Positions 16,007 through 34,664 of a stretch of 64,000 nucleotides of DNA are shown here, one piece after another; the first letter of the stretch is position 1; each line of letters starts with the position of its first letter. This stretch comes from Pseudomonadota bacterium (lineage in GTDB: Bacteria > Bdellovibrionota > FAC87 > UBA2466): positions 11,817 through 75,816 of the forward strand of contig JAYSWN010000068.1 in assembly GCA_043718025.1 (NCBI GenBank). The letters run 5' to 3'. A program made the position numbers and the translations under genes. The notes under the pieces are model-generated. The model was not told where the DNA came from. It made no database searches and worked only from the letters and a program-made list of their open reading frames with translations.

Positions 16007-16040
16007 ATTTTTTAATACGAGTTTGTCTCTGGATCTATAA

Positions 16041-16060
16041 AAGGCGAGCTAGCTCGCCTT
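16041..16060. terminator. perfect 20-nt palindrome / hairpin between convergent genes
   Basis: AAGGCGAGCT|AGCTCGCCTT is exactly self-complementary and overlaps the last codons of the response-regulator gene. The flanking U-tracts are weak on both strands. Confidence 0.4.
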
Positions 16061-16705: not shown

Positions 16706-16709
16706 TGAT

Positions 16710-18509: not shown

Positions 18510-18575
18510 TTTATACCGGTACCTTTTCCTTTTCGGCTTAAGGCGTGATTTAATTTCGTTAAAAATGAGGTTCCG

Positions 18576-19820
18576 TTGAGTCTTCCCCATGGCCCGTCTC
18601 AAAGCCCGATCGAACAGACCTTTCATTGGTTCTCTAGGCCCTATGCCTTCTTGGACGAGTGCTCGGCTCAGTTTGGAGAAACCTTTTGCCTGAATTTTCA
18701 AGGCCTTGGCCCTCATGTGGTGACATCCGATCCGGAGTTCATTAGGGCAATTTTTCAAGGTGATGCGACCCAGTTTTTAGGCGGACAGGGAAAAGAGATG
18801 TTGCGTCCCTTTCTCGGAGAAAATTCAATACTTCTCACCGATGGCCCGCTGTACCAAAAGCACCGCAAGGGCATGTTGCCGCTTTTTCGGCCGCCCTGGC
18901 TCGAATTGTGGAGAGACTCACTCAATGAGGTGACCGCCGAATGGTTGAGGGCATGCCGCAAAGAAAACCTTGTCCACGAGTTTTGTCTCGAAATTTCGCT
19001 TCATTTAATAGTTCGTGCGATCTTCGGCAAGGCAAGTGCCGCCACCGCCATTTCAGAGGTGGTTTTAGCGTTCATGACCGGTGTGAATTTTAATGCGCAG
19101 GCCGCTCTCGATGAGGGCGGCGGGGGCAAGGCGATGGAACGACTCCATCGGAATTTGAATCGGCTGGACACGGTAGTCGCCGCCGAAATTGCGCGTCAGA
19201 AAAATAATCCAGACGAGGAGGCTTTGCTTTTTGGTTTAGTGAAAACCGCCGAGTCCGAGGCCTGGAATGAAAAAGAGATTCGCGATCAAGTGGTGACGTT
19301 ACTTATCGCTGGCCATGAGACCACGGCCACTACGCTTGCCTGGACTCTTTTCGAAATCGCCAAATCTCCGTCCACAAAAAAAAGAATGGAGGCCTCTTGC
19401 GACGTTGCTTTTTTCGATTCAGTGATCAAAGAAGGGATGCGACTTTGGCCGGTGATTCCGGTCGTGGCCAGAAAATTGGATTCGGTTTTTTCGTTCGGCG
19501 AATGGACGTTTGAAAAAGGGGTGCATTTGGTTCCGTGCGTTTATCTGGCGCACCGCAGGTCTAGCGCGTTCAAGAATCCAACGCAGTTTTTACCCGATCG
19601 GTTTTTAACGCTGGATCCTTCGCCGTTCGAGTATCTCCCTTTTGGTGGCGGAGTGCGGCGTTGCCTGGGAATGGGAATGGCGATGGAAGAGATGAACGCG
19701 GTGCTTCGCCAACTATTTCAACACTATCAGATTGAGTTCAGCGGAATGGAAAAGGTAAGGCCGGCACGACGCAGTGTGGCAATTATTCCGTCCGGTCCTT
19801 TTCGTCTGAAATTGCTATAA
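18576..19820 (+). CDS. cytochrome P450
   Basis: I-helix LLIAGHETTATT, ExxR (KEGMRLWP), and the heme-Cys motif FGGGVRRCLGMGMA. The TTG start has GAGG 5 nt upstream. Confidence 0.9.
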   Translation: MSLPHGPSQSPIEQTFHWFSRPYAFLDECSAQFGETFCLNFQGLGPHVVTSDPEFIRAIFQGDATQFLGGQGKEMLRPFLGENSILLTDGPLYQKHRKGMLPLFRPPWLELWRDSLNEVTAEWLRACRKENLVHEFCLEISLHLIVRAIFGKASAATAISEVVLAFMTGVNFNAQAALDEGGGGKAMERLHRNLNRLDTVVAAEIARQKNNPDEEALLFGLVKTAESEAWNEKEIRDQVVTLLIAGHETTATTLAWTLFEIAKSPSTKKRMEASCDVAFFDSVIKEGMRLWPVIPVVARKLDSVFSFGEWTFEKGVHLVPCVYLAHRRSSAFKNPTQFLPDRFLTLDPSPFEYLPFGGGVRRCLGMGMAMEEMNAVLRQLFQHYQIEFSGMEKVRPARRSVAIIPSGPFRLKLL

Positions 19821-20125
19821 TGACTGGTGTGAAATCAACCGCTACATACCAATTCAAAAGACCCGAGATCGAAGAGCGAACTCGGGCTACGATTCTAAAG
19901 GTCATGCAAAAGACCGTCGCTTTACGAAAGGCTGATTCGTTTGTTTCGGTACTGGGTTTCAATTCTCTGCGAATGGTTTCGCTTTCTCTCGCGTTAGAAG
20001 AGGAGTTTGGCAGTCAGCTTCTGCTGAACGACTGGATTGCTAGCGCTGACGATCCTCGTGATCTTACCGTGGGCTCCCTCTATGACTACGTGGAGAAAGC
20101 GCTCGCTGACGGCCTGAACGCATAA
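19820..20125 (+). CDS. stand-alone acyl/peptidyl carrier protein (PP-binding)
   Basis: 101 aa. VLGFNSLRMVSLSLALEEEFG matches the carrier-protein Ser motif, with N-S instead of D-S. The ATG overlaps the P450 stop (TAATG). Confidence 0.7.
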   Translation: MTGVKSTATYQFKRPEIEERTRATILKVMQKTVALRKADSFVSVLGFNSLRMVSLSLALEEEFGSQLLLNDWIASADDPRDLTVGSLYDYVEKALADGLNA

Positions 20126-20189
20126 TTCTGTTCAGATAGTAACCCCGCACTTTCTTTGCGCTTTGCCATTCCGGTAAAGGAGATCTGTC

Positions 20190-22010
20190 ATGTCTTTGAC
20201 GTGTGAAACCAAAGGGCCATACCTCCGGGTTTGGTTTGACACTCCCAATTCTGAAATTAATATTTTCGACCATCCTACCGCTGAAGCACTAACCAAAATT
20301 TTGGCAATCGTTGACCCTAGGATTCACAAAGCGGTTCTGTTTCTTTCCAGCAAACCGGCAAGTTACATCAACGGAGTTGGGCTGCTTTTGGCCAGCGCAA
20401 TTAAGAACGCCGACGAGGCGATTAAGTTAACCGCACCCACTCGCCAGGCCTATCTAGCGGTTAAAAATTGCATTGTTCCAACGGTGGCCGTGGTCAAGGG
20501 CAGCTGCTTTGGATGCGGAGTTGAATTCATTTCACATTGCACGTACCGGGTGGCCGTCGAATCATTAGAAACTACTTTCTACATGACAGAAATTCCTGAA
20601 TACATTTTTGTTCCTGCATTCGGAGGCACTCAGCTTCTTCCCCCCCTGGTGGGCTTAGAGAAAGCTACCGATCTGATTTTGTGGGGTGAAAAGTGGGACA
20701 CGCCTACCGCGAAGAGATTTGGTCTGCTCAATGAAACTGTCCCTCTGCTGAATTGGGAACGAAATTTAGAAAAACTTTTGCCAAAACTAATCGAAAAAAA
20801 AATGGAGAGAAAGAAAGCGCCGAAGAAGACGCACGAGTCTTTGTGGACCAAGACCGAAGGGCGCATTCTTTCGTTACCGCCTTCCTACCAAAAACCGTAT
20901 CATGACGCCTATCACCTACTCCAGATTGGCGCGGCGGCTGACGCTTTTAACGAACTCACTTCGCGACGAGAACTTAAGGCGTCGATGGAAAGCGTGATGC
21001 GAAACGAGAGCAAGATGGCGCTCTCATTTTTCTTTGTGCGACAGTCTGCTCGCCTGATTGCAGAAAAAGGGCGCCTCGATAACCAACGGGCAATTCTAAA
21101 TCTGCGATTGCCCAAGGCCGCTATGGCTTGGGGCAGGTCATTGGTAAACCAGGATCCCGAGAGCTTTAGCTTCAAACTTCAGAGTTACGTGCCCGGCCGG
21201 GCGGCTGGCGTTTTTCTTGAAACCGGAAACAGTGAGTCCATTCCCTTCTACGTAGGTAGCGCTCCTTTAAACCAAAGGCGAAACGAAGTTCCCCGCCACG
21301 GCGTTTACTGGCCCGGCTATCAGAGCCAATGCAAACTGGTCGAGATCCGCAACGTGGTTTCACCCTTGGCCCGGGCCGAGGTGGCGTTTTGTTTCCATAA
21401 AATGGGTTTTACGACGGTAGTTTCCCACGGCGAAGGGGGATTTTTTCTAGACGAGCTGTGGAAAAATACGGTTGGGGGGTTGGCGTCTCTTTGTGAGCAT
21501 TCGGTCTCTCCTGAGGAGGTCATCGAATCGCTGTGCGATTTTGGCTTCCTTGATTTTCCGGCAACTTGGGCCAAGCGCTTTGGAACATCGCTTACTTCAT
21601 CCATTTCAAGGGCGGCGGCCGGCAATCAGAGGAAGGATCCACAAACCGGAGACAAGGTGCGGGCTTGGGCGGAGCGTTTGCAAAAGTCTCCGCGGCAGGT
21701 CGCCAAGACGGGAACCAGCATTAACCCAATTGTCGTTAAAACCCTCGTGGCCTGGTGGATGAGTGTTGTGGTGAAAACGTTCTCGGATTCAAAGATCGCC
21801 CATTTGGCGTTTGCCGATGTGGCGGCCCGCGAAATGTTGGGTTTCCCCCTGTCGCACTTAAGTCTTTCGCGTTTTGCTACCAAGAAATGGCTTAGAAGCG
21901 AGGTGCTGGCTTCGCATGAAGTGCTAGGGCAATTGCCGCCGGAAGTGGCTGACCCTCTTCGCTATTACACTGATTTCGAAACGGTGCGATCGCCGCGTCA
22001 GAGATCGTGA
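20190..22010 (+). CDS. FadB/FadJ-like protein: crotonase (enoyl-CoA hydratase/isomerase) N-domain plus truncated 3-hydroxyacyl-CoA dehydrogenase-like C-part
   Basis: Crotonase motifs VVKGSCFGCGVEF and TEIPEYIFVPAFGGTQ are present with both catalytic Glu positions. KLVEIRN...GFTTVVSHGEGGFFLDELW aligns by eye with FadB PLVEVIRG...PGFFVNRVL. No GxGxxG NAD loop is recognisable. AAAGGAG SD. Confidence 0.75.
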   Translation: MSLTCETKGPYLRVWFDTPNSEINIFDHPTAEALTKILAIVDPRIHKAVLFLSSKPASYINGVGLLLASAIKNADEAIKLTAPTRQAYLAVKNCIVPTVAVVKGSCFGCGVEFISHCTYRVAVESLETTFYMTEIPEYIFVPAFGGTQLLPPLVGLEKATDLILWGEKWDTPTAKRFGLLNETVPLLNWERNLEKLLPKLIEKKMERKKAPKKTHESLWTKTEGRILSLPPSYQKPYHDAYHLLQIGAAADAFNELTSRRELKASMESVMRNESKMALSFFFVRQSARLIAEKGRLDNQRAILNLRLPKAAMAWGRSLVNQDPESFSFKLQSYVPGRAAGVFLETGNSESIPFYVGSAPLNQRRNEVPRHGVYWPGYQSQCKLVEIRNVVSPLARAEVAFCFHKMGFTTVVSHGEGGFFLDELWKNTVGGLASLCEHSVSPEEVIESLCDFGFLDFPATWAKRFGTSLTSSISRAAAGNQRKDPQTGDKVRAWAERLQKSPRQVAKTGTSINPIVVKTLVAWWMSVVVKTFSDSKIAHLAFADVAAREMLGFPLSHLSLSRFATKKWLRSEVLASHEVLGQLPPEVADPLRYYTDFETVRSPRQRS

Positions 22011-22067
22011 AGGTTTCTTAACTTTTGCCCGCCAAATACCGATAGGGAACATTAGAGGACCCTTATC

Positions 22068-25000
22068 GTGTTACAGCAAACCACCGATACTGCGCAGGAA
22101 ACTCTCCCTGCACTTGGCGAAAATCTTTCGCTGATGTGGGAGAGAATTTCCCGTTTCGCGCAATCTGATCCTAAAAGAGTCGCTTTGAGCCGTCTTTCGG
22201 CTCGCGGCGGTGAATTTACTGAAGACACTATCACCTACGGAAAATTGGAGCACGAAGCTCTCTCATTGGCGGTCTACTTTAAATCGCGCGGCTACTCCAA
22301 GGGGTCGTGTGTTCTTATGCTCGTTGAAGACCCCATTGATTTTGTCACCACACTTCTGGGGTTAACCCGGGCGGGTCTGGTGCCGGTTCCGCTTCCTCCC
22401 TTTCGCGGATTCGGGCGGATGCCGGCTTTTGAAGAGCGCTTGCAGGGAGTGGTGCGAGTCTGCCGGCCATGCCTCGTGGTTTCCGATGACACTCATTCGT
22501 GGAAAAAGAACAAAGACGAGATGGTGGCGCAGATTCCCTGCGAACACATCAGTCACGTTCGCGCTGAGTCTCTCATCCGCGAGAAACTTAAGGAAGATCG
22601 TGACCTTCCCTTGCCCACCAAAGACGACATCGCCTTTTTACAATTCACCTCGGGGAGTACCGGAGAACCCAAGGGCGTTGTCATCACTCACGAAAATTTA
22701 GCGGCCAATCTAACGGCGATGGGTCTGGCGACCGAATTTCGAGCCGATTCCGATCGTGTCGTGTCTTGGCTTCCTCTCCATCATGACATGGGCCTAGTGG
22801 GAGGCCTGTTATTCCCCCTTTATTGGAAAGTGCCCACCTACTTGATGTCACCTTTGAACTTCGTGGCTCAGCCATCGAGCTGGCTCTGGGCAATTCACCG
22901 CTATCACGCCACGATGACGGTGGGCCCTAACTTCGCCTATTCAGTGTTGGTAAAGCGGGCTCCGGACTGGGAACTAACTGGTCTCGACCTTTCTACATTG
23001 CGCTTGGCTTTCTGTGGCGCCGAACCCATCGATAGCAAAGTGATTACCCAGTTCAATCGGCGATTTTCTGCCTTCGGAGTCCGTTCCAGCGCCTTCTTTC
23101 CGGTATATGGAATGGCCGAAGCCACGCTCGCCGTAACTTTTCCTCCGTTGAATCAAGAAGCAGTTTATGAAAACGTGAATCGGGCTCACCTCATTGAGAA
23201 TGCCGAGGCCATCGTTTCTTTACAGGATTCTACCATTCCTTGCGTTTCTGTCGGCCAGCCTTTGCCAGGTCACAAGGTGAGCATTCGCAGTTTAGAGACT
23301 GATGAAGTGCTTGGAGATCGAAAGGTCGGTGAGATCGTCGTGTCCGGCCCCTCGATCAGTCGCGGCTATTTTGGTTTACCGCTGCGCTCTGGAGAATTGA
23401 AAACCGGCGACATTGGCTATCAGGCCAACGGAACTCTTTTTGTTATCGATCGCAAGAAAGATCTGATCATCATTGCCGGTCAGAACTATTATCCCTCAGA
23501 TTTGGAGCGTCATCTGGCGATGGTGGCTGGCATTCGCACGGGACGAGTCGCCACTTTCTCAGTCTCTAACGGTAGCGAGATTGAAGAGCTGGTAGTCGTA
23601 GCGGAACTCGGCCCTCATTCCTTCTCGCAACGCGATCAGATCCGACGCGAAATTGAAGGTAAAATTCATGAAACGTTTGGTCTTTCGGTCGCAAAAATAA
23701 TTTTCGTCATGCCTGGCCGTCTCCCCAAAACCACAAGCGGGAAGATTCGTCGGAAAGAGTGTGCCGAAATTTACGAACGCGGCGGATTCGCGAACCAATT
23801 TACCAAAGCACAAAGGGCATCACTGGCGGTTAAGAGCGGGCTTCGGCGTATCGTAATGCGACTCGTTCGCCTCAAAGCAGATGGCTGGAAACAGGTTTTC
23901 GACCAGGTCATGGAAGTCATCGAGTATTTTGTGCCGCCCGCGCTTCGCCAGGCCGATGCCGAGACCAAACGCCGCGCCAACTTGGTCGTCTTCTTTGCCT
24001 TTGCGGTTTCATTTTGGGCACCGGTATATGGCGCCGTATACGCTTTTGTATTGGAACTCCCGGTTGTTGGTTTCGCTATCTTGCTCGCCGGGGTCGGTGG
24101 CGCCGTGGTGCCGATATTGTTGCGCTTCACCGGGCGCATCAACCTTGCCGGTAATCTGTTAACCTTTCATTTGTTTTGGATCTTGTCTTACGCCGCGTGG
24201 TACAGCGGGGGACAAGGGTCGGCCCCTTTGATGTGGATGGTAGCGGTTCCCATGGTTGCCATTTGCATGTCCGGAACGAAGGCCGGAGTCCATTGGGGCG
24301 TAGCCGCCCTGGTCGAGCTTTTGGCCTTTTTTTGTTTCGATAAATTGGGCTGGGGAAGTCCACATGAATTGAGCGTGGATAAAGCGCGCTTTTTAAATAC
24401 TTCGGTACTATGCGGATTGCTCACTTTGATTACTACGCTGACGTTGCTCTATGAAGCGATGAAAAAAATGGCAATGCAAACGATCGAGGCCAACAATAAA
24501 GCGATCGCAAAGGGCCACGCTCGTTTGGGAGCCGTTTTAGATCACGCGCCAAACGGCATTGTTACCGTGGACCAGTTTGGCGCAATCGAAACCAGCAATC
24601 GGGCTGCGGAGCAAATGTTTGGTTTCACGAGCGGCGAGCTTAAAGGAAAACCTTTCAATTCTTTGTTGGTGCGGCTTTCTCTAGTTCATGGCGAAGAGAC
24701 AATCGAGGTGCCGGCTTTTCGCGATCTGTTCAAATCAGGCGGTAAACATTTTGAGGCGGTGGCCACCAACCGGGCCGGCAGCACCTTTGCGGTGGAATTC
24801 GGGGTGAGTGAGGCTGCGCTCGACCATTGGCGAATTTATACCATCATAATTGAAGATGTTACTGACCGTAAGCGTGCGGGTATGGAGTTGTTGAGGGCAA
24901 AAGAAATTGCGGAGGCCGCAAATATAGCAAAATCTACGTTTCTTGCGAATATGTCGCACGAGCTGCGCACGCCGATGCACGGTATCATCAGCTACGCCAC

Positions 25001-25646
25001 ATTCGGTCGGCGCGAATATCAAAAAGCATCTCCAGAAAAAATCTCGGGCTACTTTCAACACATTTTAGAAAGCGCCCACCGGTTGCTTAGTCTGCTGAAT
25101 AATCTATTAGATCTTTCAAAATTCGAAGCTAATAAAATGAGATTTCAGCTCATCAAGGCAGATTTGGCACGGGTAGTGGAAATGGTTCATGGAGAATTGG
25201 CCGGCTACGCTAAAGAAAAAAGCGTGGAAATTTTATTCGAAAGACCAGCCAAACCGATAGCCTGTGCGTTTGATGACGAAAAGATATCCCAAGTGGTCCG
25301 TAATCTGTTTTCGAACGCGATCAAATTTTCAAATCCGCAAACTGCGATTAAAATTGAAATTGGTTATACTGAACTGCCGCAGCGTGGAGTCTATTTTGCA
25401 ATCACAAATCAGGGTGTCGGAATTCCCGCCAACGAATTAGAACTTATTTTTGATAAGTTTGTACAAAGCAGTAAAACCCATTCTGGTTCCGGTGGTACGG
25501 GCTTAGGCCTGGCGATATGCCGCGAAATTTTGAATGGGCATAAAGGCAAAATATTTGCGTCGAATGACAATGATGGACGAACCCGATTCACATTCATTCT
25601 ACCTGCACAAGTTGAAGTCCTTGCAAAAAATCTGGAGGCAGCATGA
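22068..25646 (+). CDS. fusion protein: fatty acyl-AMP ligase (FAAL) - 6 TM helices - PAS - HisKA - HATPase_c sensor histidine kinase
   Basis: aa 1-575 carry FLQFTSGSTGEPKGVVITHENL, WLPLHHDMGL, GPNFAY, FCGAEP, YGMAEATL, TGDIGY, DRKKDLIIIAGQNYYPSDLE and KTTSGKIRR (FadD32-type adenylation motifs). aa ~637-796 form six hydrophobic helices. A PAS domain spans ~815-935. H-box MSHELRTP (His964, nt 24957-24959), N-box RNLFSNAIKFS, NQGVGIP, GGTGLGLAI. Confidence 0.85.
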   Translation: MLQQTTDTAQETLPALGENLSLMWERISRFAQSDPKRVALSRLSARGGEFTEDTITYGKLEHEALSLAVYFKSRGYSKGSCVLMLVEDPIDFVTTLLGLTRAGLVPVPLPPFRGFGRMPAFEERLQGVVRVCRPCLVVSDDTHSWKKNKDEMVAQIPCEHISHVRAESLIREKLKEDRDLPLPTKDDIAFLQFTSGSTGEPKGVVITHENLAANLTAMGLATEFRADSDRVVSWLPLHHDMGLVGGLLFPLYWKVPTYLMSPLNFVAQPSSWLWAIHRYHATMTVGPNFAYSVLVKRAPDWELTGLDLSTLRLAFCGAEPIDSKVITQFNRRFSAFGVRSSAFFPVYGMAEATLAVTFPPLNQEAVYENVNRAHLIENAEAIVSLQDSTIPCVSVGQPLPGHKVSIRSLETDEVLGDRKVGEIVVSGPSISRGYFGLPLRSGELKTGDIGYQANGTLFVIDRKKDLIIIAGQNYYPSDLERHLAMVAGIRTGRVATFSVSNGSEIEELVVVAELGPHSFSQRDQIRREIEGKIHETFGLSVAKIIFVMPGRLPKTTSGKIRRKECAEIYERGGFANQFTKAQRASLAVKSGLRRIVMRLVRLKADGWKQVFDQVMEVIEYFVPPALRQADAETKRRANLVVFFAFAVSFWAPVYGAVYAFVLELPVVGFAILLAGVGGAVVPILLRFTGRINLAGNLLTFHLFWILSYAAWYSGGQGSAPLMWMVAVPMVAICMSGTKAGVHWGVAALVELLAFFCFDKLGWGSPHELSVDKARFLNTSVLCGLLTLITTLTLLYEAMKKMAMQTIEANNKAIAKGHARLGAVLDHAPNGIVTVDQFGAIETSNRAAEQMFGFTSGELKGKPFNSLLVRLSLVHGEETIEVPAFRDLFKSGGKHFEAVATNRAGSTFAVEFGVSEAALDHWRIYTIIIEDVTDRKRAGMELLRAKEIAEAANIAKSTFLANMSHELRTPMHGIISYATFGRREYQKASPEKISGYFQHILESAHRLLSLLNNLLDLSKFEANKMRFQLIKADLARVVEMVHGELAGYAKEKSVEILFERPAKPIACAFDDEKISQVVRNLFSNAIKFSNPQTAIKIEIGYTELPQRGVYFAITNQGVGIPANELELIFDKFVQSSKTHSGSGGTGLGLAICREILNGHKGKIFASNDNDGRTRFTFILPAQVEVLAKNLEAA

Positions 25647-27232
25647 GCAATGAATTGCCGAAACTTGGAAGTGTCTTGGTCGTCGATGACGATCCCCGTA
25701 ACCTCGATATCATCTGCCATCTGCTGGAAGATCTGGTGAAGGAAGTGGTAACCGCAGCCGATGCTAAGGAAGCCATTCAAAAATTGGAAACTTTCGATGC
25801 GGACCTGGGACTGTTCGACATCATGATGCCTGGCATGAACGGTTACGAACTTTGTCAGTTGGCAAAAGAGAAATATCCGCACCTTAAAGTAGTATTAGTT
25901 TCGGCCAAGGCCTCTTTAGAAGAACGCATGGCCGGCTATGACGTGGGGGCGGACGACTACATTCCCAAACCTTTCGATCACGATGAGTTTATCGCCAAAG
26001 TACGGGTACTCATTAAACTGCAATTGGTTGAGAAGGAGCTGCGTCAATTCAACCAGGATTTAGAAACGCGGGTGCTGGAGCGTACCCAAGAAGTACAGAA
26101 CATGTACCAGCAGCTTCTCTTGTCATCGAAACTGGCTTCGTTAGGTGAGCTGTCGGCAAGTATCGCCCACGAAATTAACAATCCCCTTACCATTCTCAAA
26201 GGGAACGTTGATTACCTGCGCGAAGTGCTTGAAAAGAAAGGCTCTAAAGAACTGATTGCGGTTTTAGACCAACAAGACAAGGCGATTGTGCGGGTGGTGA
26301 ACATCATTCAGGGGCTTCGTCGCCATGCCCGCCACGATGACGCGGAAGTCGTTAGCTTTAATGTGCACAAATCAATTGAGGAGACTCTTTCGTTGATTCG
26401 TCCCTTGCTCAGTGGCGACAACGTCGCGTTGGTTACGAATTTATCCGCCGATTCACCCTACACCCGGGGGGTTCCGACGCGATTTCAACAAATTCTGATG
26501 AATTTGGCGACCAACGCCCGTGATGCCCTTAAAGGAGTCGCTGGAGCAACAATTGAAATTTCTACCCGCAGCGTAAAAGACAAATTAGAGATCGCGATCT
26601 CAGATAATGGCTGCGGCATTCCCGATCCAGTACGAAATAAGATCTTTGATCCGTTCTTCACGACCAAGGCAGTTGAACAAGGCACTGGTCTAGGTCTTTC
26701 GATTGTGGGTTCGATTATTTCTGAAATGAATGGCACGGTGCAGGTGAGTTCGTCGCCCAATCGGGGGACCACTTTCACGCTATATTTTCCCTGTCTTCGC
26801 TCGGAAGAGGTGCTGTTCCAAAAAGAGGCGGGGAGCGGGGCGGCCCCGGCCGAGATTCAGCTTAAAGGAAGAGTTTTGGTGGTGGAGGACGAAGAGGTGA
26901 TTGCCCACTTGGTCAGTCGCTATTTGCAGGACCTGGGGTTAGACGTCTCCACGGTACTTAATGGCGAAGACGGTTTAGAAAAATTGAAACACGAAACGTT
27001 CGATTTAGTTCTCACCGATATGCAGCTTCCCCATCTGAAAGGTAACGAGTTGGTGGCGGAAGCCAAGCGGCTGGGACGATGGGGTAAAACTCGGGTCGTG
27101 GCGGTTACCGGACAGGTCGATCCGGCGCTGGCGCCTAAGGATGGAAAAAGAGGGGTGGTTGGTTTTGACGGCCTGCTTTCCAAGCCGTTCTCGAAAGGCG
27201 ATGTTTATGCGATCGTTCGAGACCTTTTATAG
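25643..27232 (+). CDS. soluble hybrid relay kinase REC-HisKA-HATPase_c-REC
   Basis: The ATG overlaps the upstream stop (ATGA). REC1 is VLVVDDD...LGLFDIMMPGMNG...DDYIPKPF. H-box SIAHEINNPL, NLATNARDAL, DNGCGIP, GTGLGLS. REC2 is VLVVEDEE...LVLTDMQLP...LSKPF. There are no TM segments. Confidence 0.85.
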   Translation: MSNELPKLGSVLVVDDDPRNLDIICHLLEDLVKEVVTAADAKEAIQKLETFDADLGLFDIMMPGMNGYELCQLAKEKYPHLKVVLVSAKASLEERMAGYDVGADDYIPKPFDHDEFIAKVRVLIKLQLVEKELRQFNQDLETRVLERTQEVQNMYQQLLLSSKLASLGELSASIAHEINNPLTILKGNVDYLREVLEKKGSKELIAVLDQQDKAIVRVVNIIQGLRRHARHDDAEVVSFNVHKSIEETLSLIRPLLSGDNVALVTNLSADSPYTRGVPTRFQQILMNLATNARDALKGVAGATIEISTRSVKDKLEIAISDNGCGIPDPVRNKIFDPFFTTKAVEQGTGLGLSIVGSIISEMNGTVQVSSSPNRGTTFTLYFPCLRSEEVLFQKEAGSGAAPAEIQLKGRVLVVEDEEVIAHLVSRYLQDLGLDVSTVLNGEDGLEKLKHETFDLVLTDMQLPHLKGNELVAEAKRLGRWGKTRVVAVTGQVDPALAPKDGKRGVVGFDGLLSKPFSKGDVYAIVRDLL

Positions 27233-27959
27233 CTTTTCACAACCCTTACCCCCCCTACTCCAACTCGAGGAGGGCGAGGTTCAAGTGGTTCGTTTGAATA
27301 TTGAGGAGCTGCGTCCTTTTCTGCGCGAGCTTCATGGCATTTTGACGCCTGAAGAACTTAAGCGCGCCACGCTCTTTCGCTATCCCAAAGATGGCGATGG
27401 CTTCATTTTGGTGCGTGGAGCGCTGCGGTTGATCTTGGGCCGTTATGCGGGGGTACACCCGCAAGAGATAGAGTTTGATCACAACTCCCAAGGTAAACCG
27501 CGTCTGGTTAAGTCGCAAAACGACATGGGTCTGGAATTTAATGTCTCGTTTTCTGGTTCCATTGCCATTTACGCGTTTGCAAAGGGGATTTCCCTCGGAA
27601 TTGATGTAGAGCAGCGCGATTCAAAACTAGATTTTAAAAGCGTAAAAGATCGGTTTTTGGACAAGATCGATTTCAATTTTTTGGAAGGGTTGCCGGAACT
27701 GCTCAAACGGGATGGCTTCTTTGCGTTGTGGACCCTGCGCGAGGCGGCCGCCAAAGCGGAAGGGGAAGGTATTTTTTTCAAAGCGGTAAACCGCCCCCTC
27801 CCACTCGATCACTGGACGGCAGTTTCCTTTTTTCCGGGCGCTGGTTACTCCGCCACTTTAGTGATGGAGCAGAAAGCCGAAGGTGGCAGCCGCCACGTTA
27901 CTTTTTGGAGTTGGTCTAACACCGCCGTCGGCCTCTCGCACGGACCTGATCTTGAATAG
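27201..27959 (+). CDS. Sfp-type 4'-phosphopantetheinyl transferase
   Basis: Motifs SQGKPRL, SLGIDVE, WTLREAAAKAEGEG. ATG 27201/27207 with AAAGG upstream lies inside the 3' end of the preceding gene (~32-nt overlap). Confidence 0.8.
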   Translation: MFMRSFETFYSFSQPLPPLLQLEEGEVQVVRLNIEELRPFLRELHGILTPEELKRATLFRYPKDGDGFILVRGALRLILGRYAGVHPQEIEFDHNSQGKPRLVKSQNDMGLEFNVSFSGSIAIYAFAKGISLGIDVEQRDSKLDFKSVKDRFLDKIDFNFLEGLPELLKRDGFFALWTLREAAAKAEGEGIFFKAVNRPLPLDHWTAVSFFPGAGYSATLVMEQKAEGGSRHVTFWSWSNTAVGLSHGPDLE

Positions 27960-27968
27960 GAGTTTTCT

Positions 27969-29096
27969 ATGCCCGAGATGATTACCGAAAGACCCCGAAT
28001 TCTTCTGGTGGATGACGAGAAGGAGATCGCCCAAGTGATCTCTCGCCTTCTGGACATTCATGGTTTTGATGTCACTCTGGCCCACACCGCGCAAGAGGCG
28101 TTGGACAGTATGGAGACCCAACTTCCCGAGCTGGTGCTTTCCGATGTGGTGATGCCCGGCAAAGATGGTTATGCGCTCTGTGGAGAGATTCGTCGGCGCT
28201 ATGAAGATAAAGTGGTTCCCATCATCCTGATTACGGGTAAGGACTGGAGCGGTGAACGGGCTCGTGGCCTAGAAGCCGGCGCTGACGACCTCATTACCAA
28301 ACCCATTGATAAGAATGAACTGCTTAACCGAATTCATTCCCTCGTAAAAATGAAAACGTTGCACGATTCCGTGGAGTCGCAAGCGCACAAACTTGCCGCC
28401 AAGGGGGCCGAACTCGAGACTAAAGTTAATGTGCAAACCAATCAGTTGGGTCAGCTAAAACGGTTTTTCTCCCCGCAGATTGCCGATTTTGTGCTTTCGC
28501 ACGCTTCCGAAGCAGTTTTTCAATCGCGTCGAAAAGACGTAACCGTAGTTTTTTTGGATCTGCGTGGCTTTACCGCCTTCGCCGAAAAGGCGCTCCCGGA
28601 ACAAGTAATGGAGGTTCTCGGTGAGTATTATGCAACCGCTGGCGATATCGCCCTTAAATTCAATGGCTCGATCGGTCGTTTGGCCGGGGATGGCATGATG
28701 TTTTTCTTGAATGATCCGGTTGAGATTCCCAACCACGCGGTGCGAGCGGTGGAAATGGCTTTGGCCATGCGCGAAGCCATGATTCGCTTGCGCGGCCAAT
28801 GGGTTCCCAAAGGGTATGAGTTAGACTTTGGCATCGGCATGGCCACCGGCCGTGCCACTATCGGTGCCGTCGGCTTTGAGAAATATTGGGATTATACCGT
28901 CATCGGGTCGGTTACCAACTTGGCTTCCCGTCTTTGCGATGAAGCGAAATCGGGTCAAATTCTCGCTTCCGAGCGTTTTTTGGGCGATACCGCCAATGGT
29001 TTTCGCACCCAACCGTTGGGCGTCGTGCCGCTCAAAGGGTTTGGTAATCCGGTTAAGATCTTTAACATCTTGGCTAAAAAGACTGACGAAAAATGA
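27969..29096 (+). CDS. response regulator with class III adenylate/guanylate cyclase output domain
   Basis: REC is ILLVDDE...LVLSDVVMPGKDG...DDLITKPI. Cyclase motifs are VTVVFLDLRGFTAF, GRLAGDGMMFF, IGMATGRATIGAVG, YTVIGSVTNLASRL. It starts 9 nt after the PPTase gene. Confidence 0.85.
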   Translation: MPEMITERPRILLVDDEKEIAQVISRLLDIHGFDVTLAHTAQEALDSMETQLPELVLSDVVMPGKDGYALCGEIRRRYEDKVVPIILITGKDWSGERARGLEAGADDLITKPIDKNELLNRIHSLVKMKTLHDSVESQAHKLAAKGAELETKVNVQTNQLGQLKRFFSPQIADFVLSHASEAVFQSRRKDVTVVFLDLRGFTAFAEKALPEQVMEVLGEYYATAGDIALKFNGSIGRLAGDGMMFFLNDPVEIPNHAVRAVEMALAMREAMIRLRGQWVPKGYELDFGIGMATGRATIGAVGFEKYWDYTVIGSVTNLASRLCDEAKSGQILASERFLGDTANGFRTQPLGVVPLKGFGNPVKIFNILAKKTDEK

Positions 29097-29839
29097 AAGC
29101 CCAACGTAAATTGAAGTTAGCTCCGCCGCCCGCAATTGCGGGGCAAGAGATCGTTCCCTCTCCTGGCGAAGATCGATTCATTCTCGCGGCGGCGTTAGTG
29201 GTTTCGTTTTCTGGCGTGGCCTACGAACTTCTGCTCGCTACTTATGCCACCTACCTATGGGGAGGTAGTATTTTCCAGTACAGCCTGGTTTTTTCGTCAA
29301 TGATGCTTTCGATGGGGGTAGGCTCTTGGCTATCGGACCGCGGAAAGGCAAGCCCCGGCGTTCGCTTCGTCGTCATTGAATGCTTTTTGGCCGCGCTCGG
29401 GGTTGTTTGTTTGCCCTTGCTCTACACGGCATACTGGAAAGGCTTTGCCCCACTGTTTTTCACCTTCGGATTTAGCTTAGCTTTTGGCTTTTTAGTCGGG
29501 GTTGAAATCCCTTTATTAAACCGCTGGCTGGGGCGAGAGAAAAAAATCTCCGAATTATTGTCGGTCGACTTTGCCGGGGGCTTCTTAGGCGGAATCCTAT
29601 TCCCCCTTTTTTTAGTTCCTCATCTGGGCCTTTTTCGCGTGGCGGCATTGGTCGCGCTGCTCAATGCAATGGTGGCCCTTCTGGGATCCAGGCTAGCGAT
29701 AGTGCGCGCCGCAACTTCAATTCAAAAAAGCCATTGGCTTCAAGTCTTCGCCATTGCGGTCTGTCTTTTTGGGTTGGGATTTTTGTTTTGGGCCAATGAG
29801 ATCCAAAGTTGGATGCAGTACCGCTTCTTTGGTTTCTAA
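29093..29839 (+). CDS. polytopic membrane protein paralogous to the TM domain of membrane spermidine-synthase-like proteins
   Basis: ATGA overlap with the cyclase stop. About 7 TM. The N-terminal pattern SGVAYELLLATY...MMLSMGVGSW mirrors the N-terminus of the next ORF. Confidence 0.6.
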   Translation: MKAQRKLKLAPPPAIAGQEIVPSPGEDRFILAAALVVSFSGVAYELLLATYATYLWGGSIFQYSLVFSSMMLSMGVGSWLSDRGKASPGVRFVVIECFLAALGVVCLPLLYTAYWKGFAPLFFTFGFSLAFGFLVGVEIPLLNRWLGREKKISELLSVDFAGGFLGGILFPLFLVPHLGLFRVAALVALLNAMVALLGSRLAIVRAATSIQKSHWLQVFAIAVCLFGLGFLFWANEIQSWMQYRFFGF

Positions 29840-29850
29840 AAAGGAAATTA

Positions 29851-31434
29851 ATGCTCACGCCTTTGCAAATATATCTTCTCTGTGTCGCGGTCAGCGGTAG
29901 TGGCTTTGTCGCACAGACCCTCATTTCCGGATTTTGGTCCACGGTATTCAACGAGGATTCAGTCTACTACTCCGTAAATCTGGCTTTCTACTTCGGTGGC
30001 ATGGGGGTTGGCAGCTTGATTGCCGGCTGGTTCGGAAAGGCTACGGAAAAGCTGGTGTTAAAATTCGTTTTGGCACTTCTCGTTTTGGTTGCCCTCATGA
30101 TTCCATTGCTTCGGGTAGGCGTGAGCTGGCTCGGCAATCGGGAATTCCTCCCGCTGTTCTTAGTGATCGCAGCCGGAATCTTTGCCGGCGCAACTATTCC
30201 TTTGGTAATTCGACTTCGAAGTCGTGGCAATCAGACAAGCTTGGGTACCGTCTTTTTCTTAGATTACTGTTCGGCGTTTGTCTTTTCGTGCCTCTTTAAT
30301 CTTTTCCTCTTGATGCGTTTGGGCTATCTGCAGACCGCTTGGCTTTGCTTTTTTGCGGGGTCTACTCTTTGTCTACCTGCGGTTTACCAATTGGGAAAAA
30401 GGAAGGGAGTCTTGGCCTATGTGACCTCGTTCGTCGTGGTCGCACTGACCTCCTATCTCCTTTCGTCCCACGGTATGAATCCGGATCCCCAATCCCGGGC
30501 GGAATTTAAAGTGTTGGTTGATCGTCAGTCGCCGTATCAGAAAATTGTGATGACCGAAGAGATTGGCCACGGGTCTCTTTTTCCCGGCGCAATTCACCAG
30601 GTGATGTACTTAGATGGCATGGTGCAATTCTCGAGTCTCGATGAGACCAGCTATCACATTTGCTTAGCCAATATTCCAATCACCGCGGTTGAGTTCTTTG
30701 GGGGAAAACCTCGGCGCGCCCTTATCTTAGGCGGCGGCGATGGACTCGCCGCCCGAAATCTTTTGGCCTACCCCTCGGTTGAAGCGGTTAAACTGGTTGA
30801 GTTGGATCCGCTAATGATCAGTCTTGCTCAGCATGACCCCCATTTAGTTAAAATGAACGCCCGGTCATTCTACGATCCCCGTTTTTCGTACGTCGAGGGC
30901 GATGCCTTTCGGTGGATTAAGGAGAGCGAAGAGAAGTTTGACGTAATCCTTCTAGATTTTCCGCACCCGAAAAATTTATCGCTCGCACGTCTCTACTCAG
31001 CGGAATTCTATACTCAGTTAAAGAAACGATTGACCGCCGATGGTTTCATTTCGATTCAGTCGGGCCCAGCCTTTTCGCCGCAGGATACTGAGCGCAACAC
31101 GCTTAGCGAAATTTCATCCGCGATTTTGGAGACGGTGAGGAGGGCGGGATTGAAGGCAGAAATTTATTTGAGTCCGGCGGATCAAGAGGCCTTTGTGATA
31201 GCCACGGCTCGAAAGGATTTTGACATGAACCGTTTTGCTACGGCAATGAGCATGACCGGAGCTGATGGCCTGGGTTTTCTTTGCCAATTTATCCCGTCGT
31301 GGAAGCGGCCGCCGGCCAGCGTTAATACGCTAAATGATCTTTCGCTCGTGACTTACATGGACCGTTGGAATCGCGGTGGCGCCCGAAAAAATTACGACTT
31401 TAGGGGGTCGCGTTCCGTTTTCTTACCCCGTTAA
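29851..31434 (+). CDS. membrane-anchored spermidine synthase-like (SpeE-fold) protein
   Basis: AAGGAAA SD before ATG 29851. About 7 TM, then SpeE motifs ALILGGGDGLAARN, VELDP, VEGDAF, DVILLDFPHP. The canonical D(S/T)xDP box is altered. Confidence 0.72.
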   Translation: MLTPLQIYLLCVAVSGSGFVAQTLISGFWSTVFNEDSVYYSVNLAFYFGGMGVGSLIAGWFGKATEKLVLKFVLALLVLVALMIPLLRVGVSWLGNREFLPLFLVIAAGIFAGATIPLVIRLRSRGNQTSLGTVFFLDYCSAFVFSCLFNLFLLMRLGYLQTAWLCFFAGSTLCLPAVYQLGKRKGVLAYVTSFVVVALTSYLLSSHGMNPDPQSRAEFKVLVDRQSPYQKIVMTEEIGHGSLFPGAIHQVMYLDGMVQFSSLDETSYHICLANIPITAVEFFGGKPRRALILGGGDGLAARNLLAYPSVEAVKLVELDPLMISLAQHDPHLVKMNARSFYDPRFSYVEGDAFRWIKESEEKFDVILLDFPHPKNLSLARLYSAEFYTQLKKRLTADGFISIQSGPAFSPQDTERNTLSEISSAILETVRRAGLKAEIYLSPADQEAFVIATARKDFDMNRFATAMSMTGADGLGFLCQFIPSWKRPPASVNTLNDLSLVTYMDRWNRGGARKNYDFRGSRSVFLPR

Positions 31435-32426
31435 ATTTTTTCACATCGTAATCGCAGATTGATGGTCATATCGCTGTTTGGGTAGCGGAAGCTTGAGGTG
31501 ATTTTCCGTTTTTCAAAAGGGGAGAGTCGGAGCACGTTGGGGCTTGGTTTTTCAAGATCACCCATTCTAAAGAGTGTTTCGCACTTTTTCTCTACGGCCT
31601 CGTGGTTAATCACATCGTAATGCATTTCCAGCACCTGGGGTGCCCCTTCCAGCGTGAAGCGACAAAAGACACTTTCGGTCGAAGTCTTATTCTCGTTCGT
31701 GCAGCGAAATGAAGGGATCTTCGACTTCTCGCGAATGTCCAAATACAAGAAGGCAACGGTGGCTAAGCACCAGAGCAGGAAAACGCGAACTGCAGTGGTA
31801 CGCCCCTTTTCGCTCGGCCGGTGCCGAAGTATCCAGGGCTTAAGGGCAAGTCCAATTGCCAGCGAGAGAAGGCAAATGAACGCGGTAAAGAGAACTGAGT
31901 AGATCGGGCCTCTCATCCATTCCGCCCCGGGCATGCAGGTGCGGTGGATGCAATTCACATTTTGGTTTTCGGGAAAAAGCCAGGACACGAAGAAGATCCC
32001 GGCGTGTACCAACGCTTGTTTTGGCGCCGGCAGCCAACGTTGATCTTTGGTGACGAATAGGTAGGTAATGCCCACCGGCAAAATGTAAAAGTGATAGTGG
32101 CTCAGCAGGAATTCATCGGTCGGGTTGCCGGGCTGGTACATGAACTCAACCAACCCGAAGAGATTTCGGCCCGTAAAAATCCGCCAGAAGTTATCCGTGA
32201 TCCAAAATGTTTGGGTCGCTAGGGCTACCGAAATCCAGCCGAGTCCCCATCCCCAGTGGTCAAATACCAGTACGGCTCCTATCGACCCTAAACACAAATT
32301 ACAGAACCACCAGTACATCCCTTCGTCCCAGCCATAACGCGTAAAACTCAAGTAGGTATTTGCGGCGGCCCAGAGGAGAAAAAGGTAGCCGATAGTTTTA
32401 AAAAACTGGCGTTGGGTGAAAGGCAT
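31431..32426 (-). CDS. hypothetical polytopic membrane protein with Cys-containing soluble C-terminal domain
   Basis: Trp-rich TM helices. It is convergent with the preceding gene and overlaps it by 4 nt. Confidence 0.55.
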   Translation of the reverse strand: MPFTQRQFFKTIGYLFLLWAAANTYLSFTRYGWDEGMYWWFCNLCLGSIGAVLVFDHWGWGLGWISVALATQTFWITDNFWRIFTGRNLFGLVEFMYQPGNPTDEFLLSHYHFYILPVGITYLFVTKDQRWLPAPKQALVHAGIFFVSWLFPENQNVNCIHRTCMPGAEWMRGPIYSVLFTAFICLLSLAIGLALKPWILRHRPSEKGRTTAVRVFLLWCLATVAFLYLDIREKSKIPSFRCTNENKTSTESVFCRFTLEGAPQVLEMHYDVINHEAVEKKCETLFRMGDLEKPSPNVLRLSPFEKRKITSSFRYPNSDMTINLRLRCEKI

Positions 32427-32650
32427 CCTCTATTGTCCCACGACCTTCCCTTTTCCTCTGCTCTTCCATTAATATTCTATAAATACAATGATTTATCGAA
32501 AGAGTGAACGGGCGTATAAACTCTAGGCTGAATTTCTTTTTTGCTTTCAATGCTTAACGAAGCTGGCCCGCCGGGCCGTATAAACCTTGGTCATAAGTCG
32601 CAAAGGTGGCCGCTGATCATATGGCATCCGGTGTGCACTCTATTTGTCAC

Positions 32651-33574
32651 ATGAACCGACAAAATTACTTTTCAGTACGACATCTTTTCTCTGTGGCACT
32701 GTGGTCGTTTTTGGCGATCGGGGTAGTGATGTCGGGCGGTTGTAACCAGGGGAGCAGTCGCTCCACTTTGGGTGACGACAAAACCAAGGAAGATGTTTTC
32801 AAAGACTTTAATGACCTGGGCAATAATGGAAAAGGGAAGTCGCTCGGCGATATCGGGGCCGGTGGTGGTGTCGCGCAGCCTAAACCTGGCAGCAATTCTG
32901 ACGGCTCTTTCTCAGGATTAGACAAACAGGCGGTCAACAACGCCTACTCCGAAAACCAGCAAGTGGCCCCAACCGGCAAAATAGAGATTTTTACCGACGA
33001 GCTTAAGGCTCAAGCAAAAGAGATTTTGGCGCTCCAACGGCAAAAAAAGGACACGGCCGTAAAAAAACTTTTGTTCATGGCGGCAATGCTTAAGCGTTGC
33101 GGCGAAGTCGTGGCTAAATTCACCCCAATCGCGGGCCAGCCGTTGATGGGAAAGTGGAATGGACAAGGCGCTTGTAGTGTAAGTTTTGACGTGGCCGGAA
33201 ACGGAGCCGGCGGTAAATACGCGGTTACCGGAGGCAGCAAGGGCACTTTAACTGCCGACACTCAGGGAAAAGGCGCGATTCAGGCCGATCCTTTCTCAGG
33301 TAACGTGGTGGACTCGCCGCAATCCGGAACCGGGCAGGTGGTCTATCCAGGTTTCTTCAAAACCAAAGCTGGGACGTCTGACTGTGTGCTCGGCATCCGC
33401 TTGGCCGAACCAACCAGCCCCATTCCGGCTAACTACAAAGAAGGCATGACCGTGATGGGTGCCTGCCTTCGTAATACGGCTCTGTTTATCAGTCCGGTGT
33501 TCGACAGGATGTTCCAGGACATGAATCCTGCCGTCTCTGAACAGCTACAAAAGAAGTTCTTAAATATTGAGTAA
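32651..33574 (+). CDS. hypothetical lipoprotein
   Basis: ATG 32651 gives MNRQNYF...LAIGVVMSGGC with a lipobox-like SGGC. Confidence 0.5.
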   Translation: MNRQNYFSVRHLFSVALWSFLAIGVVMSGGCNQGSSRSTLGDDKTKEDVFKDFNDLGNNGKGKSLGDIGAGGGVAQPKPGSNSDGSFSGLDKQAVNNAYSENQQVAPTGKIEIFTDELKAQAKEILALQRQKKDTAVKKLLFMAAMLKRCGEVVAKFTPIAGQPLMGKWNGQGACSVSFDVAGNGAGGKYAVTGGSKGTLTADTQGKGAIQADPFSGNVVDSPQSGTGQVVYPGFFKTKAGTSDCVLGIRLAEPTSPIPANYKEGMTVMGACLRNTALFISPVFDRMFQDMNPAVSEQLQKKFLNIE

Positions 33575-33632
33575 GGTCACTCCCCATTTAAGTACCAAAT
33601 CAGCCCGCATCTCATTCCCAATGACGACTTCT

Positions 33633-34502: not shown

Positions 34503-34664
34503 ATTGGCCCCCCTTAAGCCTAAAGGGTGCAAGCGAGGGTCCTAAAGTTCACCGATGAGTACTTTCTGTATACAGGGCAGAAGTGTAGATCTCGTCGTTT
34601 TTTGTCTTTTTCTTAGGCGGCCACTCGGCCGTGGGTGCTTCGTTTTCAAAGGCTGGCCAACAAA

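Follow-up and report, generated by a model that had tools for sequence, protein, structure and literature searches.

A conserved fatty acyl-AMP ligase-histidine kinase fusion in a fatty-acyl tailoring and putative phosphorelay locus of Bdellovibrionota

Gene content of the locus

In the genome assembly GCA_043718025.1 (Pseudomonadota bacterium; Bdellovibrionota in the GTDB lineage), we analyzed a stretch of 64,000 nucleotides (nt) of contig JAYSWN010000068.1 (positions 11,817 to 75,816, forward strand), hereafter the window, in which positions 18576 to 31434 hold nine genes, all co-directional on the plus strand. The fourth gene encodes a single polypeptide in which a fatty acyl-AMP ligase (FAAL) is followed by a six-helix membrane domain, a PAS domain and a histidine kinase (FAAL-HK). 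It is preceded by genes for a cytochrome P450, an acyl carrier protein (ACP) and a FadJ/FadB-like hydratase and followed by genes for a hybrid kinase, a 4'-phosphopantetheinyl transferase (PPTase), a receiver-controlled nucleotide cyclase and two membrane proteins. The fusion and the order of its neighbors recur in independent assemblies, and we tentatively read the conserved part of the locus as a unit that senses free fatty acids, derived from prey or from membranes, through the enzymes that process them and that has a cAMP-type output. The original prediction spoke of ten genes; the open reading frame (ORF) listing and the junctions give nine, which is also the number that the prediction itself named:

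18576..19820, plus strand: cytochrome P450 (414 aa, TTG start)
19820..20125, plus strand: ACP (101 aa)
20190..22010, plus strand: FadJ/FadB-like hydratase (606 aa)
22068..25646, plus strand: FAAL-MASE6-PAS-histidine kinase fusion, FAAL-HK (1192 aa, GTG start)
25643..27232, plus strand: hybrid kinase with the domain order receiver (REC)-HisKA-HATPase-REC, REC-HK-REC (529 aa)
27201..27959, plus strand: PPTase of the Sfp/HetI type (252 aa from the ATG at 27201)
27969..29096, plus strand: response regulator-class III nucleotide cyclase, REC-cyclase (375 aa)
29093..29839, plus strand: polytopic membrane (TM) protein (248 aa)
29851..31434, plus strand: SpeE-like membrane-anchored protein (527 aa)

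Every overlap and gap that had been predicted for the junctions proved exact. The P450 stop and the ACP start overlap by 1 nt (TAATG); the gaps between the ACP and hydratase genes (64 nt) and between the hydratase and FAAL-HK genes (57 nt) each contain a Shine-Dalgarno-like sequence; FAAL-HK overlaps REC-HK-REC, and REC-cyclase overlaps the TM protein gene, at ATGA; the ATG of the PPTase gene sits 32 nt within the REC-HK-REC gene; and gaps of 9 and 11 nt separate the PPTase gene from that of REC-cyclase and the TM protein gene from the SpeE-like gene, respectively.

The ligase-kinase fusion and its partner proteins

FAAL-HK is encoded by one uninterrupted ORF of 1192 codons, and Pfam and NCBIfam recover, within this single 1192-aa protein, an AMP-binding enzyme and, behind it, the domains PAS, HisKA and HATPase_c. 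On the window, its parts are located as follows:

22134..23792, plus strand: FAAL domain (aa 23-575), from ANL motifs and matches to solved FAALs
23958..24467, plus strand: six-helix membrane domain (aa 631-800), a divergent MASE6, from helices in an AlphaFold2 (AF2) model and Pfam matches in relatives
24522..25610, plus strand: PAS (aa 819-933), HisKA (with His964) and HATPase_c (aa 1069-1181), from Pfam

The ligase carries the ANL motifs TSGSTGEPKG (residues 194-203), YGMAE (347-351), TGD (446-448), DRKKD (461-465) and PKTTSGK, the last with the catalytic Lys559, and all of the ANL core motifs, including A10 with its Lys559, are invariant among five fused orthologues. Fatty acyl-AMP ligase subfamilies give the top NCBIfam scores, and the best matches among solved structures are the Escherichia coli FAAL (3PBK; E value, 1.6e-77), the 7R7E-G set, the FAAL-type 3KXW and the mycobacterial FadD23, FadD32 and FadD28. 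Solved FAALs match the ligase domain at E values of 1e-77 to 1e-50 and coenzyme A (CoA) ligases at ~1e-31, the FAALs outranking the CoA ligases by >40 orders of magnitude. The 3PBK alignment crosses the region of the FAAL insertion (residues 350-390) with a gap of 2 residues only, and it is from this alignment that the insertion was judged. Both its motifs and its insertion region identify the ligase half as a FAAL, and it looks like a working enzyme rather than a decayed ligand-binding shell. Acyl transfer is predicted to proceed from acyl-AMP to holo-ACP, not to CoA, and the ACP and Sfp-type, HetI-like PPTase encoded in the same operon would supply the acceptor.

In the AF2 model, the FAAL (aa 23-570) is followed by a long helix (580-621), six transmembrane helices (631 to ~800), the PAS domain (830-930), DHp (932-1020) and the catalytic domain of the kinase (1029-1191). 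The membrane helices comprise residues 631-661, 665-688, 691-712, 719-735, 737-759 and 770-824 (pLDDT roughly 60-89, mostly ~75-89), and the last of them extends, still helical, into the PAS domain. The model as a whole (pLDDT, 72; pTM, 0.48) is a monomer model of a dimeric kinase and was used for secondary structure and helix count only. With an even number of helices, both enzymatic ends of the protein, FAAL and kinase, would face the cytoplasm. Pfam matches the membrane domain to MASE6 in orthologue P0004 (E value, 4e-5) and, above the cut-off, in a relative, P0180; a word-indexed profile search with the membrane and PAS domains missed known family members and returned distant MASE6 kinases only, and was used for domain naming, not for counting.

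On the kinase side, the H box (with His964) and the boxes N, F and G2 are all preserved, and FAAL-HK itself is without a receiver or HPt domain. The Asp of the G1 box is replaced by Asn1114 (TNQGVGIP; window positions ~25407-25409), which aligns with Asp411 of HK853; this Asn is shared by all fused or split orthologues having the kinase part, whereas the more distant MASE6 kinases retain the Asp. Since the same replacement is found in VanS, a weak binder of ATP, and in the GTP-dependent Bacillus anthracis kinase BA2291, both of which are active (PMC10017428), we rejected the conclusion that FAAL-HK is a dead kinase; by analogy, the Asn may reflect an unusual use of nucleotides. The likeness of FAAL-HK to VanS-A/C and BA2291 does not extend to the input domains, which are unrelated.

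The domain calls made for the FAAL, the ACP, the crotonase and the other products of the locus survived hidden Markov model (HMM), profile and fold tests, and HMM annotation did not reassign the first three. The P450 (Pfam p450; E value, 1.3e-50) has all of the expected motifs, namely heme Cys363 in FGGGVRRCLG, AGHETT in the I helix and EXXR; its nearest solved structures are CYP175A1, CYP97 and P450 BM3 (E values, 1e-23 to 1e-19), and a redox partner for it is not encoded within the locus. The Pfam PP-binding match of the 101-aa ACP lies below the cut-off, and a family profile of 8 sequences matches solved E. coli-type ACPs, among them the BioI-ACP complex 3EJB, at an E value of 1e-9, with Ser49 (GFNSL) placed on Ser36 of the DSL motif. 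This phosphopantetheine Ser motif identifies the protein as a probable type II ACP. Its C-terminal motif, LLLNDWI...DP..LTVGSL, is strongly conserved. The PPTase matches ACPS and AASDHPPT_N in Pfam and HetI in NCBIfam (E value, 5e-34).

The third gene had been likened to the crotonase synthase RpfF of Xanthomonas; it encodes, instead, a 606-aa homologue of the FadJ/FadB alpha subunit. Crotonase matches (Pfam ECH_1; NCBIfam FadJ, E value of 1e-29, N terminus only) cover just the first ~200 residues, and an AF2 model built from 37 homologues (pLDDT, 91.3) is placed by Foldseek, over its full length, on FadJ (6YSV), FadB (1WDK), the Mycobacterium tuberculosis protein 7O1M and human HADHA (6DV2), at an E value of 1e-22 and TM scores of 0.6-0.68. 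The two catalytic Glu residues that had been predicted are present (Glu112 and Glu134) and invariant in 37 family members. In the dehydrogenase-like half, there is no GxGxxG loop, Glu385 alone of the catalytic pair is kept, and the position of the catalytic His is taken by Tyr in 25 of 37 and by Trp in 7 of 37 sequences; the protein is thus predicted to be hydratase competent and dehydrogenase dead. Compared with FadB, FadJ and HADHA, with which it shares the full-length fold and the hydratase Glu pair, it is ~100 aa shorter, lacks the NAD glycine loop, has Tyr or Trp for His and has no thiolase partner (a thiolase gene was found in none of the loci examined), and its substrate is likely to be acyl-ACP, not acyl-CoA. 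A further difference lies in the loop of the first catalytic Glu (residues 104-112, GNCFGCGVE), which reads G-N/S-C-F-G-C-G-V-E in the family, its two Cys residues being invariant in 37/37 members. Ordinary crotonases have a Gly-rich stretch at this position. A redox or metal role for the two Cys residues is conceivable.

Neither a thioesterase nor an acyltransferase is conserved in the core gene set, and we saw no enzyme for release. Thioester hydrolysis by the crotonase fold, as in RpfF (PMC4542539), would be one candidate, by analogy, for what happens to the acyl-ACP.

The remaining conserved proteins form the signaling part of the locus. REC-HK-REC has, in Pfam-assigned domains, Asp59 in its N-terminal receiver, His176, a canonical G1 box (SDNGCG, with Asp321) and Asp459 in its C-terminal receiver. 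With receiver Asp residues and a canonical second kinase at hand, the signaling proteins are predicted to form a phosphorelay. In REC-cyclase, a helical linker joins the receiver (Asp59) to a class III catalytic domain with the metal-binding Asp197 and Asp241, Asn317, Arg321 and the specificity pair Arg237/Thr310, and its best solved match is Pseudomonas aeruginosa CyaB (3R5G; E value, 1.4e-31). These residues make cAMP the likeliest product, with cGMP less likely. Receiver-activated class IIIb cyclases have a precedent in Spirulina CyaC (PMC3009899), and CyaC of Spirulina and Anabaena, the catalytic domain of P. aeruginosa CyaB and Dictyostelium ACR share with the cyclase described here a IIIb-like domain, the Thr and, by prediction, the control by a receiver fed by a histidine kinase (PMC3009899). 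In contrast to these proteins, REC-cyclase is a separate protein below a cascade of two kinases, with Arg at the position of the specificity Lys in the window and in one further locus (L001).

Conservation, split forms and surroundings of the locus

FAAL-HK is rare: a word-indexed search of 5.8e9 proteins returned five full-length FAAL-HK proteins, the one in the window included, and an index-free HMM search of 1.84e9 representatives at 50% identity returned a single full-length cluster. Protein searches combined with genome and metagenome scans, covering Logan, ENA, JGI and NCBI assemblies, together gave eight fused loci (the window, L001, L002 [= L010], L003 [= L004], L005, L006, L007 and L011) with FAAL-HK identities of 40-79%; those with a name belong to metagenome-assembled genomes (MAGs) of Bdellovibrionota or to MAGs loosely labeled "Deltaproteobacteria" or "Pseudomonadota." Wherever the contigs reach, the gene order is P450-ACP-hydratase-FAAL-HK-REC-HK-REC-(PPTase)-REC-cyclase, so that, as the original prediction had required, the homologues of FAAL-HK are co-localized with the same genes, down to 40% identity. 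An orthologue of REC-HK-REC lies immediately downstream of FAAL-HK in L001, L002, L003 and L007, and in the same place in a locus with separate ligase and kinase genes (L013; see below). The PPTase and the cyclase are each present in three loci of the conserved cluster, the former with orthologues in L003 (67% identity) and L013 (32%) and the latter with orthologues in L001 (59%) and L003 (77%). The conserved core comprises six or seven of the nine genes. Since eight independent loci retain all motifs of the FAAL, its membrane domain and the kinase boxes H, N, F and G2, the fusion is genuine and maintained by selection, and it is this recurrence of the fusion and its flanking order in independent assemblies, not the window alone, that makes the locus more than a chance arrangement.

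The junction between the hydratase and FAAL-HK genes appears to be an insertion hotspot, with lineage-specific inserts: a kinase/regulator pair in L001 and, in L003 and L006, a gene for a secreted protein of 277 aa. The 277-aa protein (L003, 1642-2475; L006, ~750-1590) has a signal peptide and no Pfam match and is absent from the window; by eye, we read its DAGAGE motif as methyltransferase-like.

In L013, a 1.68-Mb contig of a sister lineage, the fusion is replaced by two genes: the order there is P450-ACP-hydratase-short-chain dehydrogenase/reductase (SDR)-FAAL (612 aa)-MASE6-PAS-HK (575 aa)-REC-PAS-HK-REC-PPTase, with the FAAL and kinase genes abutting in different frames. A mere frameshift in long reads is an unlikely explanation of this split, given that the representative search also returned a stand-alone MASE6-PAS-HK of 580 aa with its own Met (P0193; 53% identical to the L013 kinase) and a stand-alone FAAL of 605 aa (P0194; 56% identical to the L013 FAAL), two proteins that need not come from one genome. 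The split form is very probably real, and the existence of fused and split forms provides a Rosetta-stone argument for a physical and functional coupling of FAAL and kinase. Directly after the PPTase gene, L013 carries, on the minus strand (18810-20075), a gene for an outer-membrane channel of the FadL/TodX family (Pfam Toluene_X). Such a channel would fit the uptake of exogenous long-chain fatty acids, being weak evidence from one locus and from the opposite strand.

Outside the clade of fused and split loci, the hydratase family has only ~50 members. We examined five loci from this group, in Myxococcota and relatives (L008, L012 [Pyxidicoccus sp. MSG2], L014, L015 and L016), and all five hold a module of P450, ACP, hydratase and stand-alone FAAL, with or without an SDR, and without a dedicated relay in the gene block; in L012, a HAMP kinase, a methyl-accepting chemotaxis protein and a sigma-54 response regulator are encoded within a few kilobases of the module. 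An orthologue of the P450 is present at every module locus, and the ACP, at 49-62% identity, ranks with the best-conserved products of the module. An SDR gene stands beside that of the hydratase in four of the six loci outside the fused clade (three of the five module-only loci and L013) and is absent from the window; the dead dehydrogenase half of the hydratase may explain this separate enzyme. The metabolic module is the older unit, to which the relay was added later and then, in one lineage, fused.

The two genes at the 3' end of the block do not share in this conservation. The SpeE-like protein matches Pfam Spermine_synth and, below the cut-off (score of 299 against 472), NCBIfam PRK03612 (E value, 5.5e-89); the TM protein matches the N-terminal half of the same family (E value, 2.7e-42) and, as a paralogue, corresponds to the membrane half of the SpeE-like protein (BLASTP, 27% over 187 aa; E value, 1e-5). 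The dcSAM-binding GGGDG motif is kept in the SpeE-like protein, and DCTDP of E. coli SpeE (3O4F) aligns with DFPHP, placing His372 on the second Asp, the catalytic residue of the D-x-x-D-P loop. An ordinary spermidine synthase is unlikely. Neither gene was found in L001 or L013, the only other two loci to continue beyond the relay, the contigs of the close relatives stopping short of the corresponding position. We found no support for the SpeE-like pair as a member of the system and treat it as an accessory outside the conserved core, translationally coupled to the cyclase (ATGA) in this genome only. The original idea of a self-contained acyl and relay unit is well supported as far as the coupling of the two parts is concerned; that all of the genes belong to it is not supported.

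As for the surroundings, the block is bounded upstream by a divergent pair of genes (16049-18509, minus strand) encoding a hybrid histidine kinase-receiver protein (599 aa, from an ATG near 18509) and a 218-aa response regulator. Only ~66 nt lie between the start of the divergent kinase gene (~18509) and that of the P450 gene, so that both units must be controlled from one very short stretch; the divergent pair was not conserved at the other loci compared. Downstream, a convergent minus-strand gene ends at 31431. It belongs to three consecutive ORFs (331, 322 and 299 aa; 31431-34532) that have no Pfam match at an E value of 0.001, the first of which, convergent with the SpeE-like gene, encodes a polytopic membrane protein. 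The GC content of the locus matches that of the rest of the window, which is uniform, and a scan of positions 16000-33000 for consensus promoters and terminators gave counts no higher than in shuffled sequences. Rfam and tRNA scans of the window returned no match inside the locus; a 6S/SsrS RNA (Rfam RF00013) at 51744-51928 on the plus strand, matching the full-length model with 86.4 bits, was the only Rfam match in the window, and no tRNA genes were found there.

A possible role in fatty acid sensing

Because of its parts list, the locus had been compared with the rpf/diffusible signal factor (DSF) system of Xanthomonas (RpfF, RpfB, RpfC and RpfG). Both do combine a crotonase-fold enzyme bearing a Glu pair with a ligase for fatty acids, a polytopic kinase as the sensor and an output enzyme that acts on a second messenger. 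Signals of the fatty-acid type can be bound by PAS domains, and in Burkholderia the receptor RpfR is in physical contact with the synthase RpfF (PMC6361424, PMC4542539, PMC9864630). The likeness ends with the parts list, however. RpfF is a single-domain crotonase (~290 aa) acting on 3-hydroxyacyl-ACP from fatty acid synthesis, whereas the hydratase described here is a two-part protein that shares the generic Glu pair; RpfB is a fatty acyl-CoA ligase, in contrast to an ACP-requiring FAAL; RpfC is a TM-HK-REC-HPt hybrid, in contrast to a MASE6-like sensor with neither REC nor HPt; and the output is HD-GYP in RpfG (GGDEF-EAL in RpfR), in contrast to a class III cyclase. In addition, the present locus has a private ACP, a PPTase and a P450, with ligase and sensor in one polypeptide. 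As the types of synthase, ligase and output enzyme and the architecture of the sensor all fail to agree, we ruled out the locus as an rpf/DSF system.

A second comparison is with cassettes in which a FAAL, an ACP and an oxygenase tailor a fatty acid, such as those of the JamA/JamB/JamC type; the P450 BioI likewise acts on acyl-ACP. As in these cassettes, a FAAL would load a free acid onto a stand-alone ACP and an oxygenase would modify the bound chain, with no ketosynthase, condensation or thioesterase domain. The known cassettes, however, feed polyketide or nonribosomal peptide synthesis or biotin synthesis and are unlinked to signaling, whereas here the FAAL is fused to a kinase, and the oxygenase is an E-class P450, a distant relative of CYP175, CYP97 and BM3, that is paired with a FadJ-like hydratase. 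The locus thus borrows from FAAL/ACP/oxygenase cassettes, from the FadB/FadJ fold, from multi-kinase phosphorelays and from receiver-controlled class IIIb cyclases; its novelty lies in how the genes are combined, above all in the FAAL-MASE6-PAS-HK polypeptide. In the searchable literature, we found no description of FAAL-HK, of the four-enzyme combination or of a kinase with a working fatty-acid-activating enzyme as its input.

How might these parts work together? In the mechanism that we propose, the FAAL, in the cytoplasm and tethered to the inner membrane by the six-helix MASE6-type domain, would adenylate a free long-chain fatty acid and load it onto the operon's ACP, once primed by the operon's Sfp-type PPTase. 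The P450 and the dehydrogenase-dead, FadJ-like hydratase would then tailor the ACP-bound chain near its thioester end, most likely giving a 2-enoyl or 3-hydroxy (β-functionalized) acyl species. How far the FAAL is occupied or how fast it turns over, and/or whether the membrane or PAS domain holds a lipid, would decide the balance between kinase and phosphatase activity; the phosphoryl group of FAAL-HK would pass to the N-terminal receiver of REC-HK-REC, whose canonical kinase would in turn phosphorylate the receiver of the class IIIb-like cyclase and so raise cAMP (or, less likely, cGMP). What the data show of this scheme is the domain content, the intact catalytic motifs, the fusion, the conserved order of the genes and the existence of the metabolic module on its own; we infer which acid enters and what it becomes, which way information flows, between which proteins phosphoryl groups pass and which nucleotide is cyclized. 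Because entry is through a FAAL, and because de novo synthesis gives acyl-ACP directly, the input would be a free carboxylic acid, which in predatory lineages would plausibly come from the breakdown of prey or membrane lipids. It is this requirement for a free carboxylate that makes us lean toward the second option of the original prediction, that of exogenous or membrane-derived fatty acids, over its first, that of a self-made signal.

Our preference for a conserved unit of enzyme-coupled fatty-acid sensing and processing is a tentative one, and several points weigh against it. At all five of the loci examined outside the fused and split clade, the module occurs without signaling genes of its own, which suggests that its primary role is metabolic and that the kinase could merely regulate or adjoin it; conversely, were the FAAL a sensor only, the tailoring enzymes would be unnecessary. 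The replacement of the G1 Asp by Asn could mean a weak or altered use of nucleotides, and the position of the cyclase specificity Lys holds Arg in the window and in L001 and Lys in L003. L013 has no cyclase, which means that lineages differ in their final output, and L001 has no PPTase. The closest relative, L007 (79% identity in FAAL-HK), has upstream of FAAL-HK a gene (1-1506), with which the contig ends, that by eye looks acyltransferase-3/SGNH-like and not like a hydratase. No cultured host of the fused form is known. Finally, that the block forms a single transcript is suggested by gene spacing only.

A more specific form of the proposal, which we regard as possible but doubtful, is that an active adenylating enzyme itself serves as the sensor input. 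The FAAL C-terminal subdomain undergoes a large rotation as acyl-adenylate is formed and handed to the private ACP, and this rotation would be transmitted mechanically through the helix of ~40 residues to MASE6 and from there to PAS/DHp. If so, the kinase (possibly one that binds ATP weakly or uses GTP, given its G1 Asn) would gauge the flux of fatty acids, not the concentration of a ligand, and report it as cAMP.

Two other readings of the locus seem to us unlikely, one no more so than the other. The first is an autoinducer loop, DSF-like in its logic: the module makes and releases a modified fatty acid, FAAL-HK detects this signal with its MASE6 or PAS domain, and the relay turns cell density or the level of the product into cAMP. 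Genes of a synthesis type and of a sensing type are indeed combined in one conserved operon, and the hydratase Glu pair is that used by crotonase-fold DSF synthases for dehydration and thioester hydrolysis (PMC4542539), the latter of which could provide the missing release step; in view of the fatty-acid binding by PAS and the contact between the receptor RpfR and the synthase RpfF (PMC6361424), a covalent fusion could be seen as the extreme form of such a contact. The known fatty-acid autoinducers, however, are drawn from the acyl-ACP of fatty acid synthesis and need no ligase, whereas entry through a FAAL implies a free acid that already exists. Moreover, we found no thioesterase, exporter or sign of secretion, the module alone is widespread without the receptor, and none of the features of rpf membership is present.

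The second holds that the locus is a regulated pathway for lipid tailoring or membrane remodeling, in which fatty acids are recycled or modified on a private ACP for a specialized lipid, the kinase responds through MASE6/PAS to the state of the membrane or to another cue, the fusion serves to place the FAAL at the membrane or to control it allosterically, and the relay reports the status of the membrane, not the supply of fatty acids. The occurrence of the module alone in Myxococcota would indeed put metabolism first; beyond the stand-alone FAALs of the module, the nearest relatives of the FAAL are tri-domain FAAL-ACP-PlsC(LPLAT) proteins, which point to the acylation of phospholipids; MASE6-HisKA-HATPase-REC kinases without a FAAL exist (P0180 and P0181); and the variable accessory genes, encoding SDRs, acyltransferase-3-like proteins and SpeE-like membrane proteins, are typical of lipid-modification clusters. 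Against this, no acyltransferase for passing the acyl group from ACP to a lipid is conserved in the core, nor is there a DNA-binding regulator that would link the relay back to the operon, and both the persistence of the fusion down to 40% identity and the existence of a split-gene form suggest that more than co-localization is involved. The third and weakest reading, that a lipid operon simply lies next to a two-component operon, with the fusion being an artifact of assembly or annotation, could appeal to the insertions at the hydratase/FAAL-HK junction of several loci and to the spacing-based nature of the single transcript, but it is very improbable and, in the light of the comparative data, effectively refuted by the uninterrupted ORF and by the presence of the same fusion, with the motifs of both halves invariant, in at least seven other independent assemblies at 40-79% identity.

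The analysis also defines a conserved, uncharacterized tailoring module of four genes (P450, private ACP, FadJ-like hydratase with a dead dehydrogenase half, and FAAL), which is also present in cultured Pyxidicoccus and Myxococcus spp. (Pyxidicoccus sp. MSG2, P. trucidator and Myxococcus sp. RHSTA-1-4), where its product can be determined. Through a receiver-controlled class III cyclase, the locus would link fatty-acid metabolism to cAMP-type signaling, and it offers a testable candidate for the detection of lipids by predatory bacteria of the Bdellovibrionota or Myxococcota type. Sensor kinases normally read their ligands by means of binding domains; a fatty-acid-activating enzyme as the input would tie metabolism to two-component signaling in a novel manner, and, if rotation of the FAAL is indeed what the kinase reads, predatory bacteria would have a sensor for the lipids of their prey.

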